The notes under the pieces are model-generated. The model did not search any database, had not been told where the DNA came from, and was given only the letters and a program-made list of their open reading frames with translations. The position numbers and the translations under genes were made by a program. From the sequence record OZ035849: DNA of 64,000 bases; one strand, 5' to 3'. Origin of the DNA: Escherichia phage vB_Eco_BGP. This document shows, piece by piece, positions 2,781 through 28,509 of the stretch; positions within the stretch are counted from its first letter, which is position 1; the number at the start of each line of letters is the position of its first letter.

Positions 2781-5700
2781 TTATTCAACCCATTCAAATT
2801 TAACCGTTTTATTCACTGGGTCAGGAATAATGCGAACATTACCAATTCGTAAGAAATCACGAATAGTAAGATTCCCCATTGTAGCATTATCAGATGGTAA
2901 AGCACCGATATCAGACGGCTGAGGAGGGTTACCTCCATCAAATACCTGAACAAAACTTGACCAAGAGTTTTTGGTTTTCTGCCATGTACGTGTCCAGCGA
3001 GTGGTACGTGCTTCTGGAGTCGTTGGATAAGTAATCCAATCTTGGTAAAGCGAATCAAGTGTGTTACCAAACTGAGTCAATGTACCAGGAGATTTAACTT
3101 CTTCGCCACGTTCTAAGTATGGAAGCCCAGTCACTTCATTAGTTTTTTCAACCATTTTAAAATAACCTGGGAACTGGTTATAAGTAGCTGAATCATTAAT
3201 ATCGATTGACCAGAATCCTACAGTATCAGACGTTGGCGCACGGGTATATAAGTCAGATGTTTTAGTGCCCTGAGAACGAATTCTCGAGTTAACAGTTAAA
3301 CCACCTGAATTTATAGTAGCACCTTTGGCAATGATTAAGCTTTCACCAATCGTTACTTGACCAGATGCATTATTAATAGCTAAAGGACGTAATCCATTAA
3401 ATCCGCCAGTCTGATCACCCGATGCAGTAAGCATAAAATAGGTGTTAGCAGCATCATTGCGAATAAAGAATCCATAGTCGCCATTTATTGCTCTGAAAGC
3501 ATTTGCAGACTTGCTGATGAATTCACCATTAGCAGTAACTGAACTACCAAATGTTGCAACGCCGTTCGCATTCAAAGAACCCGAAGCATTAACATTTATT
3601 GGCATTACAGTACCATTGATACTAAACGTTATATTCCCAGCTTTATTGCGTTGAGAATAAAAGTGATTAGACGTTTCATCACCAACTTCAAATACAGTAG
3701 AACGCATTGTATCTGAACCGCCACCAAACTGATTTCCCCAAACTCTGATAGTCATCGTCTGCGCTGGGTTAGTTCCAGTTTGAGGTCCTTTCTCAAAAAT
3801 CAGACGAGTTGCCGTTCCAGTATTAGAAATAGTTAATGTGCTGTTTGCCGAAACTGATCCGCCAAACGTAGCAGTACTAGATGATACAAGAGGGGCACTC
3901 AGATTCGTTTGTTGAGTTAAGGTTAGTGAACCATTAACTGTCTGTGCAATATCCCTACGAATGAACTGAGATGAATCTAGACCATCCAATAAATTTGTAT
4001 CAGCAGCTTTTGCTTTTAATGGCAAATAATTTGCTAATACACGGTTTAATTCATATGGTGATACTGCATAGCTGTTTTTCTCGTATAGCTCTAAGTCCTG
4101 CGTAGAACCAGCTGTATCATTACCAACGAATGTAATTGAACCAGATGAAGTTTTAACAAAGCCTCTTATCGCAGTAGTAGCTGCCCAAGTAGGTTCACTC
4201 TGCACAATCCATTTTAAATTTTTTGGAGATACAGCAGTATTTGCTGATGTTCCAGTCACAGTTTCAGACTGAGTTGCAACTTTAATAACACCTTCTTGCG
4301 ATTCGGTAGATTTAGTACCTAAAAGCTTTTTAGGAGTTATTAAAACATTATCTAATGTTCCTGCAGCAGCTTCAACCTGTGTAGCTACACGAAGTGTACC
4401 ACGCTGTGTCTCATTTGCTTCAAGAATATTAAGGGTATAATGGTCCCAGAGAGTTCCTGATTCAACTAATCCAGATAGAGCAACAACAGAAGTACGATCA
4501 GTACTATTAAATCTAGTTTTAATTTTTAATGGTGTAGAGATACGAGTATCGTCGACGCCTGCGTCGAATTCAACTTGTGTAGCAATTTCAGCTATACCAC
4601 TTAAACTTTCAGTTGCTCTACGGTCATTTAAAGTTTTAGGAGTGACTGCACGAGTATAATCAGTTCCTGTATTAACTTCACTTTGTGTAGCAATTTCAAT
4701 TAAACCAATTCTTCCATCAGTTGATGTCTTTTTATGTAACGTTTCTGGCGTTACAACAGCATTTGCCCATCCTTCCTGACTTTGTCCAGCAATTACTTCA
4801 CTTTCAACTGCTAAAATTACTGCACCTTGCTGTGTTGGAGTAGCTTTATACTGATCCAAAGCTTTAGGTGAAACAACTAAATTATTAGTGTTTTTATTAT
4901 AAACATTCGTACCATTTAATTCACGACTAGAAGCTGGAGTAGCACCTGCAGTAGATACAAAAGTTACAATACCAGATAATGATTCAGAACCTTGGCGAGC
5001 TTGAAGCTTTTTAGGAGTGATGATTGTAGTATCATCAGTACCTGTATTAGTTTCCTGCTGCGTAGCAATTTCAGCAACACCTCTACGAGTTTCTGTAGCA
5101 GTTCTTTCATTCAGCTTTTTAGGAGTAATGATAAGGTCATCTGCAAAAGAGAATGTGGTGTTCTGATTCACTTGAGCAGTAGTTGCTATTCTTGCGATAC
5201 CTCTACGAGTTTCAGTAGCAGTACGATTAGCTAATGTTTCTGGAGTAATTGCTAATTCTTTTTGTGGAGAATTTTCTAAATCGACATTAGCTTGAGCTTG
5301 TGTAGCTAAAGCAATTACGCCTAATCTTGCTCTAGTAGAATCATTTAAAGAGTCTACTCTTTCTACAGTTGGAACGTTTTGCTGTACAACCCAGTATTTT
5401 CCATCAGAATCTTCTATATAAGCAAGCTGTAAAACTGGAACATAATTAGTTTCACCGTTAAAAACTAATTCTTGAACAGTTACCCATTTAGTTTCAGGCG
5501 GATATTCTGAACGTTTTGGGAATTGCAGCAATTGAACTGAAGAAGCAATTTTATCTTCGCCCGCAGCTTTGATTTTAACTGTTTGTCCTTTTCTCATGTA
5601 ATTCATGGAAATTTTAACAGTATCACCAACAGAAATATTAGTTGGAAGCTGAAGCTCAATTGTTTGAGTTGTTCCGTTATTCGCACCAAATACCATGACT

Positions 5701-17179: not shown

Positions 17180-17213
17180 TTAAATATTTAAACCTATAAT
17201 AAGAGAGAATAAT

Positions 17214-17889
17214 ATGTCTACAGTTTTTAATACAAATCCAGTTGATGTTTTAAAAGAACCTATGTTTTTTGGTTCAGGTCTTGGTATTGCACGTTATGAT
17301 ATTCAACGGCATCGAGTATTTGAAGAACTTACTGAGAAGTCCTTATCATTTTTCTGGCGTCCTGAAGAAGTAAACTTAATGATGGATGCTGCACAATTTA
17401 ATAAGCTTCCTCAGTATCAGCAAAATATTTTTACTAATAACCTGAAGTATCAATCACTTTTGGATAGCATTCAGGGTCGTGCGCCATCTGCTGTACTTAT
17501 GTCATTAATTTCAGACCCAAGCCTTGATACATGGGTTGCTACATGGACTTTTAGTGAAACTATTCACAGTCGTTCATATACTCATATCATGCGAAATCTT
17601 TATACTGATCCGTCAAAGGTATTTGATGAGATTGTATTAGATGAAGCTATCATGAAACGTGCTGAATCCATTGGGCGTTATTATGATGATGTTCTGATTA
17701 AAACCCGTGAATGGGAAAATGCTAAAGAATTTGTAGAACTAGCTAAAGAATCTCCTGATGCTGTCTTTCGTTTAAACCGAGCTATTAAACAAGAAGCCGA
17801 AGCTAAACGTGCTTTAATGAAATCTCTTTACCTCTGTTTGCACGTTATTAATGCCTTAGAAGCTATTCGTTTTTATGTATCTTTTGCGT
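17214..17889 (+). CDS. nrdB: ribonucleotide reductase small subunit, exon 1
   Basis: MSTVFNTNPVDVLKEP... reads to ...EAIRFYVSFA then hits a stop; conserved R2 sequence resumes in frame 1.09 kb downstream. Confidence 0.9.
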
Positions 17890-18980
17890 AAAATGCGCCT
17901 TTAAACGGTAACGTTTATCGAAAACTCCTTTAATTGCTGGAAAGTCCTTTATAGGAAAACTAGCAGCCAAGGTTTTGCTTGCACCTTTAATTAGTATAAT
18001 ATAAATATGATTATACTTTTAAGAGGATGCACAATTGAACTATAGAAAAATTTGGATAGATGCTAACGGACCTATACCTAAAGATTCCGATGGAAGAACA
18101 TACGAAATCCATCATAAAGACGGTAACCGTGAAAATAATGATTTAGATAATTTGATGTGCCTTTCTATACAGGAACATTATGATATACATTTAGCTCAAA
18201 AAGATTACCAGGCTTGTCATGCTATAAAGCTTAGAATGAAATATTCTCCTGAAGAAATTTCTGAATTAGCTTCTAAAGCCGCAAAATCTAGAGAAATCCA
18301 GATTTTTAATATCCCTGAAGTACGAGCTAAAAATATTGCCTCTATTAAATCTAAGATAGAAAATGGTACATTTCATCTTTTAGACGGTGAAATACAGCGT
18401 AAATCTAATTTAAATAGAGTTGCATTAGGTATACATAATTTTCAACAAGCTGAGCATATTGCAAAAGTTAAAGAACGCAATATTGCAGCTATAAAAGAAG
18501 GTACTCATGTATTTTGCGGTGGTAAAATGCAGTCAGAAACTCAATCAAAACGGGTAAATGACGGTTCACATCATTTCTTGTCAGAAGACCATAAGAAAAG
18601 AACATCAGCAAAAACATTAGAAATGGTTAAGAATGGGACCCATCCTGCACAAAAAGAAATCACATGTGATTTCTGCGGTCACATTGGTAAAGGTCCTGGA
18701 TTTTATCTAAAACATAATGACAGATGTAAATTAAATCCAAATAGAATTCAATTGAATTGTCCATATTGTGATAAGAAAGATTTATCACCATCAACATATA
18801 AACGATGGCACGGCGACAATTGCAAAGCAAGGTTCAACGACTAGTCTTCGGACGTAGGGTCAAGCGACTCGAAATGGGGAGAATCCCTCTGGGATTGTGA
18901 TATAGTCTGGTCTGCATAGTAATATGTAGCAGTTCATAAGAGAACGGGTTGAGAATTAGCGAGCTCAATCGAACATAACG
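17890..18980 (+). mobile_element. group I self-splicing intron in nrdB carrying an HNH homing endonuclease ORF
   Basis: Interrupts nrdB after a U (17889); ends in G (18980); joining exons restores frame (...SFA-C-TFNFHKNMEIMEGNAK...); contains HNH ORF; structured 3' segment. Confidence 0.85.
18035..18844 (+). CDS. intron-encoded HNH homing endonuclease, I-TevIII-like, full length
   Basis: 269 aa; HNH motif EIHHKDGNRENNDLDNLMCLSIQEHYDIH; C-terminal Cys-rich region CDFCGH...CPYCDKK; TTG start after SD AAGAGGA; TATAAATA just upstream. Confidence 0.85.
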   Translation: MNYRKIWIDANGPIPKDSDGRTYEIHHKDGNRENNDLDNLMCLSIQEHYDIHLAQKDYQACHAIKLRMKYSPEEISELASKAAKSREIQIFNIPEVRAKNIASIKSKIENGTFHLLDGEIQRKSNLNRVALGIHNFQQAEHIAKVKERNIAAIKEGTHVFCGGKMQSETQSKRVNDGSHHFLSEDHKKRTSAKTLEMVKNGTHPAQKEITCDFCGHIGKGPGFYLKHNDRCKLNPNRIQLNCPYCDKKDLSPSTYKRWHGDNCKARFND

Positions 18981-26758: not shown

Positions 26759-27094
26759 ATGTCTGAAGTACAACAGCTACCAATTCGTGCTGTCGGTGAA
26801 TATGTTATTTTAGTTTCTGAACCTGCACAAGCCGGTGATGAAGAAGTTACAGAATCAGGACTTATTATCGGTAAACGTGTTCAAGGTGAAGTTCCTGAAC
26901 TGTGTGTAATTCACTCTGTCGGTCCTGATGTTCCTGAAGGTTTCTGCGAAGTTGGTGATTTGACTTCTCTCCCAGTTGGTCAAATTCGAAATGTTCCGCA
27001 TCCTTTTGTAGCTCTGGGTCTTAAGCAGCCAAAAGAAATTAAACAAAAATTTGTTACCTGTCACTATAAAGCTATTCCGTGTCTTTATAAGTGA
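26759..27094 (+). CDS. 31: co-chaperonin gp31 (GroES analogue for capsid folding)
   Basis: 111 aa [45 protein letters not shown]..., as T4 gp31. Confidence 0.95.
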
Positions 27095-27241
27095 TATAAA
27101 TAATAATATGAATTGGGTGTCGGAATAATAAGTTAACCGAACAATTCTATGTGGTAGTCTACAACTGAGAGATCTGTCGAAAGAAGATGAAATTCAGAAG
27201 AACGTGACTACCGAGTTTTAATCTCTAACGAGAATTTTTAA

Positions 27242-27490
27242 ATGATTAAACAATTACAACACGCTCTTGAACTGCAACGAAACGCATGGAATAATGGTCA
27301 CGAAAACTATGGCGCATCTATTGATGTTGAAGCCGAAGCTCTTGAAATCCTGCGTTATTTCAAACATCTGAATCCTGCTCAAACTGCATTAGCTGCTGAG
27401 CTTCAGGAAAAAGATGAACTTAAATATGCTAAGCCTTTGGCTTCTGCTGCACGAAAAGCAGTTCGTCACTTTGTGGTAACACTGAAGTAA
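27242..27490 (+). CDS. rIII: lysis inhibition accessory protein rIII
   Basis: 82 aa MIKQLQHALELQRNAWNNGHENYGASIDVEAEALEILRYFKHLN..., as T4 rIII; TATAAATA further upstream (27096-27103). Confidence 0.93.
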   Translation: MIKQLQHALELQRNAWNNGHENYGASIDVEAEALEILRYFKHLNPAQTALAAELQEKDELKYAKPLASAARKAVRHFVVTLK

Positions 27491-27888
27491 TTTACTGGAG
27501 ATTCACTGCCTTAGTGTGAGCTAAAATCGAGGAGCCGTCGAACTGTCTGATTAATGATTTGCGAATCATTATAGTTTTAAGACCCCGGCAGTTTTACGGT
27601 GTACCTCTTGAATGTTATTCTTATAGCGGCAAGTGCATGCTACCCCGAGGTGATGGCCAATCGGGAGTACGCCTCAAGGCCTATATATCCATCAGTATAT
27701 ATCTTATCCTCGAGAAATCGAACCCGGAACCTTTAAGCTAACGGTGTGCAACAGATAAGAGCTATAAGGTATGATGACGGGTTTATGGTTATCCTGGTCG
27801 TTAAATATCCAAAAACCTATGTTCCCCTTGAGGGCTTGCGCAGGCAATGCCAATAAGTCCTGCATTTTCATTTAAAAGAGAATTTATA

Positions 27889-28065
27889 ATGGCAAAACAA
27901 GCTAAAGCAAAGAAAGCAGTTGAAAAGAAAGTTGGTGATTCTAAACGCGCTGGCTACAAGCGTGGGTCGAACTCTCGTATCAATCAAACTGTTGAGAAGA
28001 TCATGCGCCGAGCACGTGCGGTTCTTCGAGATGATGCTTCTCGTTTTGGTAAGCAGAAAGCATAA
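27889..28065 (+). CDS. small basic Lys/Arg-rich protein (hypothetical)
   Basis: 58 aa from ATG 27889 (MAKQAKAKKAVEKK...); followed by a strong terminator. Confidence 0.55.
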   Translation: MAKQAKAKKAVEKKVGDSKRAGYKRGSNSRINQTVEKIMRRARAVLRDDASRFGKQKA

Positions 28066-28070
28066 GTTGA

Positions 28071-28096
28071 GGACTCCTTCGGGAGTCCTTTTTTTA
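28071..28096 (+). terminator. rho-independent terminator
   Basis: ggactccttcgggagtcc hairpin followed by ttttttta. Confidence 0.8.
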
Positions 28097-28176
28097 TTTT
28101 CCAAAGATTGCATAAAGTTGTTTACAGTATGGTTCCTTTGTGATAGTATTATCTTACACAAACAAAGGAGAATAAA

Positions 28177-28509
28177 ATGAAAACGATTAATCTGAACGCT
28201 ACAGTTAAAACTAAATGCTTCAATGGTAAATATGATGAAACTATGTGGTTCTTAATGGCAGTTGAAGGTGATATCATTGAAGTAGAAACAACAGAAGGTA
28301 TGGGAACAGATTTCACCTTTACAATTCAAGTTCATAATTTCTTTACTGGTTGGATTTATGAATTGAATACAGTAATCGTTGGAAAAATTGAACAAAATGA
28401 ATTAGGTGAATGGTATTATGTTACAGCTCGCCAACGTGCCGAACGCTTAATTGAGAAGATGAAAAAAGTTGGTAAACTTGACATGCAGCATTGGAAAGTA
28501 GTAAAATAA
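28177..28509 (+). CDS. hypothetical protein
   Basis: 110 aa ORF, SD AAGGAG, preceded by early-promoter-like gtttac...tagtat. Confidence 0.7.
   Translation: MKTINLNATVKTKCFNGKYDETMWFLMAVEGDIIEVETTEGMGTDFTFTIQVHNFFTGWIYELNTVIVGKIEQNELGEWYYVTARQRAERLIEKMKKVGKLDMQHWKVVK

Follow-up and report, generated by a model that had tools for sequence, protein, structure and literature searches.

An RNA domain with a predicted four-way junction and kissing loop is conserved between genes rIII and 30.9 of T-even phages

Introduction

What occupies the 398 nucleotides (nt) between gene rIII and the homologue of T4 gene 30.9 in Escherichia phage vB_Eco_BGP? The DNA analyzed here, hereafter the window, is a stretch of 64,000 nt from this phage (sequence record OZ035849); the interval in question runs from 27491 to 27888, between the rIII stop at 27490 and the 30.9 start at 27889. 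The phage is T4-type, of the genus Tequatrovirus, and positions 27200-28200 are 99.9% identical to Escherichia phages slur03, slur08 and slur14. An earlier note, made by a model from the sequence alone, had singled out the interval as a GC-rich island without a credible open reading frame (ORF), and had named a structured non-coding RNA, a decayed gene or a remnant of foreign DNA as candidates. Its observation is confirmed in part and its interpretation supported in part. The interval is a chain of conserved RNA structures and not a decayed gene. Its central segment, which we call element X, is almost certainly, on the comparative evidence, a real and conserved structured RNA of a new family:

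27620..27768, + strand: element X, conserved structured RNA domain (alignments A2 and A4, RNAalifold, pair counts; covariance model)

Results

Distribution and conservation of element X

The covariance model R1 scores 181 bits at 27621-27770, its single match in the 64-kb window. BLAST with X alone finds it at 411 places in 410 GenBank phage records. The X-bearing phages span at least eight genera; the groups are Tequatrovirus, the JS10 group of Escherichia phages, the Citrobacter Moon/Merlin group, the Klebsiella T4-like phages, Marfavirus, Karamvirus, Kanagawavirus, Muldoonvirus and Roskildevirus. In every locus opened X lies on the gene strand, with rIII as its upstream neighbor, and the next gene downstream, also on that strand, is the 30.9 homologue. 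With 411 places for 410 records, and X downstream of rIII in every examined locus, its distribution is not that of a multi-copy element such as a miniature inverted-repeat transposable element.

The element is conserved beyond its surroundings. For the core (27627-27761) the identity is 95.6% in Klebsiella phages and 80-95% in phages of Kosakonia, Enterobacter, Citrobacter, Serratia and Erwinia. Between genera X retains 80-96% identity at the DNA level, against 58-89% for gp31, rIII and 30.9, and the intergenic sequence around its core cannot be aligned.

In IMG/VR, 15 of 40 rIII loci carry X. Gapped-pattern scans of that collection, and scans anchored on the rIII and 30.9 proteins, led to the same lineages of phages again and added one divergent copy (L292). 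The 17-mer scans of metagenomes and genomes used a pattern too short to be selective: most of the listed matches (81 genome stretches, and the metagenome stretches) are chance, about a dozen are genuine phage contigs, and none of the bacterial contigs sharing a 17-mer with X carries the element. All these collection scans were seeded with exact patterns, so that copies outside the T-even lineage or the rIII context may be missed. No match to X was obtained by BLAST in 5,426 complete E. coli genomes, a search to which short antisense seeds are invisible.

The GenBank records listed for X annotate no RNA feature there; they hold either nothing or a short "hypothetical protein". Such proteins of 35-45 amino acids (aa) are called over X at L003 2007-2132, L023 1195-1329, L025 1183-1287 and in many other records, from phages of Klebsiella, Erwinia and Escherichia. 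The comparisons indicate that these ORFs are spurious calls over a structured RNA.

The fold of X

Covariation among the copies of X predicts seven helices and one loop–loop contact, listed here by their positions in the window:

27623-27627 / 27761-27765, + strand: P1 (extends to 27620-27627 / 27761-27768 in the window phage)
27628-27630 / 27679-27681, + strand: P2
27639-27650 / 27657-27672, + strand: P3
27682-27688 / 27695-27701, + strand: P4
27702-27708 / 27754-27760, + strand: P5
27710-27713 / 27718-27721, + strand: P6, with GAAA loop
27722-27726 / 27742-27747, + strand: P7
27651..27656, + strand: 5' half of the kissing loop, the P3 apical loop UGAUGG (pairs with 27689-27694)
27689..27694, + strand: 3' half of the kissing loop, the P4 loop CCAUCA

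P1, P2, P4 and P5 abut without linker bases, which makes a perfect four-way junction. In the comparative model the arms of X are P2-P3 with a conserved internal loop, P4, and P5, which splits into P6 and P7. The P7 loop is large and nearly invariant, and P6 is mostly capped by a GNRA loop.

RNAalifold, run on a MAFFT alignment of 30 distinct X copies (A2), gave the seven helices with 44 pairs, 21 of them compensated. Over the 30 copies 98.7% of the cells of this fold are paired; none of 500 shuffles reaches any of the measures, and slid controls pair at 27-43%. A scan of all column pairs raised only the 6-base-pair (bp) kissing loop above phylogenetic noise and no other tertiary pairs. With the kissing loop added, the 30 copies have 49 pairs with 99.0% of cells paired, again with 0 of 500 shuffles reaching these values (slid controls 29-40%); the copies are related to each other, so that the shuffle control overstates significance and its counts are not probabilities. 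The argument for the fold is therefore the number of pairs that have changed independently.

The kissing loop is itself well documented. All six positions are paired in all 31 copies (L292 included), and three of them show compensatory changes (among the 30 copies of A2, C-G in 21 and U-A in 9; G-C in 26, A-U in 2 and U-A in 2; G-C in 28 and A-U in 2). The divergent copy L292, found by model R1 with 106 bits, has a GC content of 37% and the same gene context. Its P3 stem is wholly different in sequence yet paired (GCAUCAAU / AUUGAUGC); a C-G pair of P2 has become U-A, a G-C pair of P7 has become A-U, and the kissing loop reads CAAUGA / UCAUUG. When L292 is included, the 49 pairs are formed in 99.1% of cells, 28 are compensated, and each helix has at least one compensated pair. 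The 31-copy alignment was fitted to the covariance model; a MAFFT alignment showed the same picture.

The substitutions also identify the strand and the molecule. G-U pairs are frequent (at two positions, for example, in 13 and 8 of the 30 copies), and on the other strand they would be A-C mismatches; the functional strand is therefore the gene strand, and the functional molecule RNA. Conservation extends to unpaired bases: 62 of 150 columns are invariant, among them 28 of the 52 unpaired ones, including AAG.GCAU in the P2/P3 internal loop, ...GCUAA in the P7 loop and the junction strand GCAACA. Insertions and deletions are not multiples of three (7 nt inserted in L030, changes of 1-2 nt elsewhere). 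Single-sequence minimum-free-energy folding of X recovers most of the local hairpins and not the full junction, with a z-score of -1.8 (-1.4 for the interval); with scores as unremarkable as these, thermodynamics alone would have missed the element.

X as an exchangeable cassette

Comparison with T4 reveals how X comes and goes. The rIII–30.9 interval of T4 is 244 non-coding nt; it lacks the block at about 27621-27772, with about 99% identity on either side. Exactly the X block is thus missing from T4 and its close relatives, and also from some phages whose rIII protein is identical to that of the window. The junction lies between GAATGT and G(T/A)ATGATGAC and is empty in T4. In other phages the same junction holds an unrelated block of about 70 nt, CTATCACGCGTCAGAAAAAGGTTATCTGTCTAAGTCGTGG. 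The rIII–30.9 interval has the look of a site at which small structured modules replace one another.

The spacing around X varies as well. Between genera the gap that separates the rIII stop from X is 12 to about 130 nt (12 nt in the Citrobacter phages), and the one that separates X from the hairpins downstream is 8 to about 70 nt. The sequence of the downstream hairpin changes between genera and that of X does not. Reading 30 lineages by eye, we saw no conserved alternative pairing between X and the downstream hairpin.

One metagenome contig (L151) carries an X that is 98.7% identical to the window copy beside a truncated 30.9. The deletion joins the small CCCCTTGAGGG hairpin to the middle of 30.9, and the 5' half of the gene is gone together with the hairpin that precedes it. 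Seen in a single contig, this deletion could be recent or an assembly artefact.

Two side observations concern the same slot. The alternative cassette CTATCACGCGTCAGAAAAAGGTTATCTGTCTAAGTCGTGG was found at L235 ~1875-1945 and in L240, L241, L246, L250 and L252, at the site that corresponds to 27616-27772 of the window. Its inner stem covaries (CAGA/UCUG versus CAGC/GCUG), in L252 it sits within a terminator-like hairpin before 30.9, and a scan of related loci matched it to no Rfam family. Separately, a copy of T4 DNA, 97-99% identical, lies at 3498-3845 of Escherichia phage vB_vPM_PD06 (NC_052653; L276), within a tRNA gene array. That phage is phi92-like (Justusliebigvirus) and not a T4 relative. 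The copy is circularly permuted: the X-less T4 interval comes first and the last 40 codons of rIII follow. It is flanked by 13-nt direct repeats, TTTATTGGAGATT, the second of which continues into a tRNA-Gln gene. This arrangement suggests the integration of a circularized T4 fragment, and a relationship between the first bases after the T4 rIII stop and a tRNA 5' end.

Composition and coding capacity of the interval

The gap of about 400 nt reported in the earlier note is real. None of the mechanical ORFs in its 398 nt (60 aa from TTG, 27559-27741; 45 aa from GTG, 27599-27736; and others) matches a PHROG family, and no reading frame stays open among the homologues: in several, the longest stop-free run on the plus strand is 25-26 codons, and in some X copies a stop-free run reaches 39-45 codons. 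By a crude count of ATG-started ORFs the window has three ORF-free gaps of at least 150 nt; besides the interval they are a tail-fibre gene running off the window edge and the nrdB intron. The GC enrichment, once computed in windows, is genuine and at the same time modest: the interval has 42.5% GC, its central 150 nt have 46.7%, and the window as a whole has 36.0%. Among 398-nt segments (standard deviation 3.6%) the interval lies at the 96th percentile, and others reach 47%.

These results sort the candidates that the earlier note had put forward. The structured non-coding RNA is strongly supported by the 49 pairs, 28 of them compensated, of the central 150 nt. The decayed gene fails, as the T4 site is a non-coding interval without an ORF and no frame is conserved. 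Alignment to T4, which had been suggested as a check, shows a block missing from T4 and not a frameshifted T4 ORF. Foreign DNA is right in that the center is a cassette present or absent with respect to T4, and wrong in that this cassette is intact and conserved, hence no remnant.

Other RNA modules in the interval

X is accompanied by further structures on both sides:

27527..27611, + strand: module U, a long irregular hairpin whose tip is the 8-bp hairpin 27552-27571 (RNAalifold)
27776..27799, + strand: downstream hairpin GACGGG...CCTGGTC, followed by conserved GTTAAATATCCAAAAC (read from aligned sequences)
27824..27834, + strand: small hairpin CCCC-TTGA-GGG, followed by CTTGCG (shared by almost all relatives; contains the octamer ccttgagg)
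27840..27873, + strand: hairpin GCAGG...CCTGC, followed by U-rich ATTTTCATTT, just 5' of the 30.9 ribosome-binding site

Module U has 25 pairs, 5 of them compensated among 14 distinct copies, and is also found in T4; its support is more modest than that of X. The 8-bp hairpin taatgatt-tgcg-aatcatta, already picked out in the earlier note, is real and has compensatory changes in relatives, although it had been placed one base off (it lies at 27552-27571). As a detail of structure it caps the longer conserved hairpin, and so belongs to a separate module outside the most conserved RNA.

The recurrence of the downstream hairpins in T4 and other genera was judged by reading the sequences. The hairpin at 27776-27799 is kept in T4 and, with altered stems that covary by eye, in several other genera. 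The one at 27840-27873 is kept between genera with different stems (GGGAGC/GCTCCC, GAGAG/CTCTC); a simple terminator scan did not call it. In phages of Klebsiella, Citrobacter, Kosakonia and Enterobacter, AUGUAUUUCUCC-AAAAU-GGAAGA stands just 5' of the 30.9 start (e.g., L003 ~2190-2218), and by eye its UCUCC is able to pair with the GGAAGA ribosome-binding site. This pairing suggests a translational control of 30.9 that is independent of X.

A long-range helix between CCTCAAGG and CCTTGAGG, also proposed earlier, does not stand. Of its two octamers, cctcaagg lies at 27672-27679 and ccttgagg at 27826-27833 (the latter had been placed 4 bases off). T4 keeps the second without the first, and Kosakonia phage 305 alters both without compensation (CCTCATGG versus CCTAGAGG). 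The first octamer is internal loop and P2 of X, and the second is part of the local CCCC-TTGA-GGG hairpin. By our estimate (400²/2 ÷ 4⁸), about one inverted 8-mer pair is expected by chance per 400 nt.

Neighboring genes and transcription signals

The gene order on the + strand is that of T4: gene 31, rIII, the interval, the 30.9 homologue, a terminator and gene 30.8. The features are:

26759-27094, + strand: gene 31
27095..27102, + strand: exact match TATAAATA to the T4 late-promoter consensus, between gene 31 and rIII (read from the sequence)
27242..27490, + strand: rIII, 82 aa (PHROG 1457, "lysis inhibition accessory protein", E = 4.7e-44; GenBank annotations)
27889..28065, + strand: homologue of T4 gene 30.9, 58 aa, Lys/Arg-rich (PHROG 1427, E = 2.3e-31; T4 annotation)
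28069..28090, + strand: intrinsic terminator, UUCG-loop hairpin and T run, closing the rIII–30.9 unit

The small Lys/Arg-rich gene followed by a strong terminator, as the earlier note had it, is this 30.9 homologue; no Pfam family matches its product. The consensus that identifies TATAAATA is well established in T4, and the match is the likely late start of a transcript over rIII, the interval and 30.9. Within 27491-27888 a scan found neither a sigma-70-like promoter nor an intrinsic terminator, T4 middle promoters being outside its scope. X therefore does not have the promoter and terminator of a stand-alone small-RNA gene, and we infer that it is made within the rIII–30.9 transcript.

Comparison with known RNAs

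X resembles several known RNAs in anatomy and matches none of them. Rfam 15 at gathering thresholds has 0 matches in the 64-kb window; at E ≤ 10 over 27400-28150 it returns terminator look-alikes at 28021-28104 and none on X, and on 15 related loci, 8 of them X-bearing, nothing falls on X. The Rfam-type scan of the interval that had been recommended was thus run and found no family on X. Both settings also missed the nrdB group I intron of the window, presumably owing to the homing-endonuclease ORF that interrupts it; an empty Rfam result thus does not prove that known RNAs are absent, and it is more meaningful for X, which is contiguous, than for a split intron. That intron spans 17180-18154 between the nrdB exons and holds a full-length homing-endonuclease ORF (17214-17891, 225 aa). 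ARAGORN found 0 tRNA or tmRNA genes in the window, and Rfam no tRNA or tmRNA match at E ≤ 10. Queries of the searchable literature, including full-text queries with sequence strings of X, returned nothing on the element. Two further resemblances, to PK1 of tmRNA (CAAGGUGCAUGCCGAGG) and to J11/12 of RNase P (GUGCAACAGAGAGCA), were dropped: there was no covariance-model match, and the shared 7-10-mers are at chance level.

The purine and lysine riboswitches have a multi-way junction locked by a loop–loop contact. Their aptamers share with X a junction closed by P1, neighboring arms tied by Watson–Crick loop pairing (L2-L3 in purine, P2-P3 in lysine), many invariant unpaired bases, and a place in a 5' leader, followed by a hairpin that ends in a U-rich tail. 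X differs from them in having no similarity to an Rfam riboswitch, in sequence or by covariance model, and no conserved switching helix; moreover, the T4 leader works without X, and the downstream gene gives no clue to a ligand. In the hairpin and Varkud satellite ribozymes a perfect four-way junction brings two arms alongside each other, a conserved internal loop lies in one of them, and the size is about 150 nt, all as in X; the Varkud satellite ribozyme has a loop–loop kissing contact as well. X, however, matches no Rfam model of either and has no identifiable cleavage site.

The T4 RNAs rnaC and rnaD (species 1 and 2 RNAs) are, like X, T-even phage RNAs of function unknown, 120-140 nt long; they are made by processing of a longer transcript. 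They lie at another locus, the tRNA cluster, and X has no tRNA-like end. With filters off, model R1 scored at best 7.6 bits (E = 0.33) in the T4 tRNA/rnaC/rnaD region, off both RNAs. The tRNA cloverleaf also combines a four-way junction with few or no linkers, a stem that joins the ends and a loop–loop tertiary contact. X is about twice its size, makes its contact between adjacent arms and not between D and T arms, lacks T-loop, anticodon-loop and CCA features, and is negative with ARAGORN and the Rfam tRNA model. Arbiol et al. (2010) reportedly described mobile regulatory cassettes, the promoter-early stem-loops, in T4-type genomes. These too are short non-coding intergenic modules of variable regions shuffled by recombination; unlike X, which has no promoter-like site, they consist of an early promoter and a simple stem-loop, and they lack its large multi-helix fold and its strong sequence constraint. 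The anatomy of X is thus closest to junction-plus-kissing-loop aptamers and junction-organized ribozymes, and X is a member of neither.

Discussion

What would this RNA do? The reading that we favor joins the new conserved structured RNA to an autonomous module that binds a partner. This joint claim, drawn from comparative sequence, we put somewhat above an even chance; the autonomous, partner-binding mode of action, judged by itself, would fall a little short of one. X would be transcribed on the gene strand within the rIII–30.9 message, early by read-through and late probably from the promoter match at 27095, and the first strong terminator after 30.9 would end the transcript that carries it. 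It would fold on its own, and its tertiary structure would be recognized by a host or phage protein or by a small ligand, either within the mRNA or in the form of an excised, stable small RNA. It seems not to act by pairing with its flanks. Autonomy is suggested because P1 is a self-contained closing stem that joins both ends, because X comes and goes as a whole while its flanks stay the same, because no conserved alternative pairing with its neighbors was seen, and because one copy persists beside a truncated 30.9. That a partner reads X is suggested by a sequence constraint stronger than that of the adjacent genes.

Several points weigh against this reading, in addition to the relatedness of the copies that tempers the shuffle control. 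A strict GNRA tetraloop–receptor contact finds no support, the P6 loop being UAAA or UAAU in 5 of the 31 copies. The expression, ends and processing of X are deduced only from gene order, the late-promoter match and the terminator, and a free-standing small RNA would require nucleolytic processing, given that no promoter-like or terminator-like site flanks X. T4 and many relatives lack X, so that it is dispensable under laboratory conditions. Lastly, the place of X in the 5' leader of 30.9, together with the downstream hairpin with its U-rich tail and the sequestered ribosome-binding site, fits a cis-regulatory role equally well.

This last point leads to the main rival, in which X serves as the sensor of a riboswitch-like leader: by binding a metabolite, an ion or a protein, X would control termination of 30.9, through the hairpin with the U-rich tract, or its translation, through the hairpin that covers the ribosome-binding site. 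X does stand where such a sensor should, in that it always precedes 30.9 on its strand without an intervening gene; its loop-locked multi-way junction with invariant unpaired bases is typical aptamer anatomy; and the stretch from X to the start codon holds, in most genera, the UCUCC...GGAAGA pairing and a hairpin with AUGUAUUUCUCC or AUUUUCAUUU after it. Nevertheless, we consider a riboswitch-like leader unlikely. T4-type phages keep the same downstream hairpins and 30.9 (about 99% identical) without X, so that the putative expression platform is independent of it. The distance from X to the hairpin and the modules in between vary, X shows no change to match those that the hairpin stem undergoes from genus to genus, and the mutually exclusive pairing expected of an expression platform was not seen in the 30 lineages read by eye. 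P1 covaries as a stem complete in itself and shares no bases with the sequence downstream, 30.9 as a tiny basic protein points to no ligand, and one copy retains X despite its truncated 30.9.

New ribozymes and passive stability elements are less likely. A passive structure in the mRNA, either a barrier to exonuclease or RNase E that sets the stability of rIII and 30.9 or a mere spacer, would suit an interval that is a run of stable hairpins and in which other short structured cassettes may replace X; RegB, RNase E and stabilizing hairpins do shape T4 mRNAs (PMC9409239). Such a barrier would need neither 28 invariant unpaired bases nor a covarying kissing loop, it leaves unexplained an identity of 80-96% across genera where protein genes have 58-89%, and the folding energy of X is ordinary for its composition (z = -1.8); we hold this explanation to be quite improbable. 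Slightly less probable again is that X belongs to a new class of catalytic RNA, self-cleaving or otherwise, and processes the transcript of rIII and 30.9. Phage genomes often contain self-cleaving ribozymes; the size of X, its four-way junction with docked arms and the invariant bases of internal loop and junction recall the hairpin and Varkud satellite ribozymes, and processing is one way to release an RNA that has no promoter or terminator of its own. Yet no Rfam ribozyme family matched even at E ≤ 10, no conserved candidate cleavage site was identified, and the comparative data hold no specific pointer to catalysis. Coding and DNA-level roles are effectively excluded. A recombination, replication or protein-binding site in DNA, very improbable in our estimate, would agree with a cassette exchanged between phages at fixed boundaries, but the covariation keeps intramolecular pairing and the G-U pairs fit one strand, as expected of RNA and not of duplex DNA, and X occurs once per genome without repeats. 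The least credible alternative, with almost no chance, is a small or decayed protein gene of 35-45 aa. Several Klebsiella and Erwinia phage records do place a short coding sequence over X, and some copies have the stop-free run of 39-45 codons; on the other side, no plus-strand frame of the copies from Serratia, Erwinia and elsewhere stays free of stops for more than 25-26 codons, the substitutions fall in compensating pairs and not at third codon positions, the indels are not multiples of three, no PHROG family matches, and the T4 site has no ORF.

We would therefore describe X as a candidate new family within the conserved structured phage RNAs of unknown function. A bolder proposal is that X is the first of a new T-even-specific class of functional RNA (a new aptamer, a ribozyme, or a decoy or sponge) and that the interval is a slot for such modules; this we offer tentatively, as possible and on balance doubtful. 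In its decoy or sponge form such an RNA could capture a host factor, e.g., a defence or RNA-metabolism protein.

T-even phages have been studied intensively, yet X is not annotated as an RNA and is absent from Rfam and from the searchable literature; it was likely overlooked because T4 itself lacks it. A practical consequence is that gene callers put spurious small ORFs over X in hundreds of genomes of therapeutic phages. The support for the fold is about as good as comparative data permit, and together with a conservation above that of the neighboring genes it argues that some partner must read X. Natural variants, with X, with an empty T4-type site or with another cassette on near-identical flanks, make the function directly testable. 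The partner of X could reveal a new RNA-based way in which phages control their own expression or manipulate the host.

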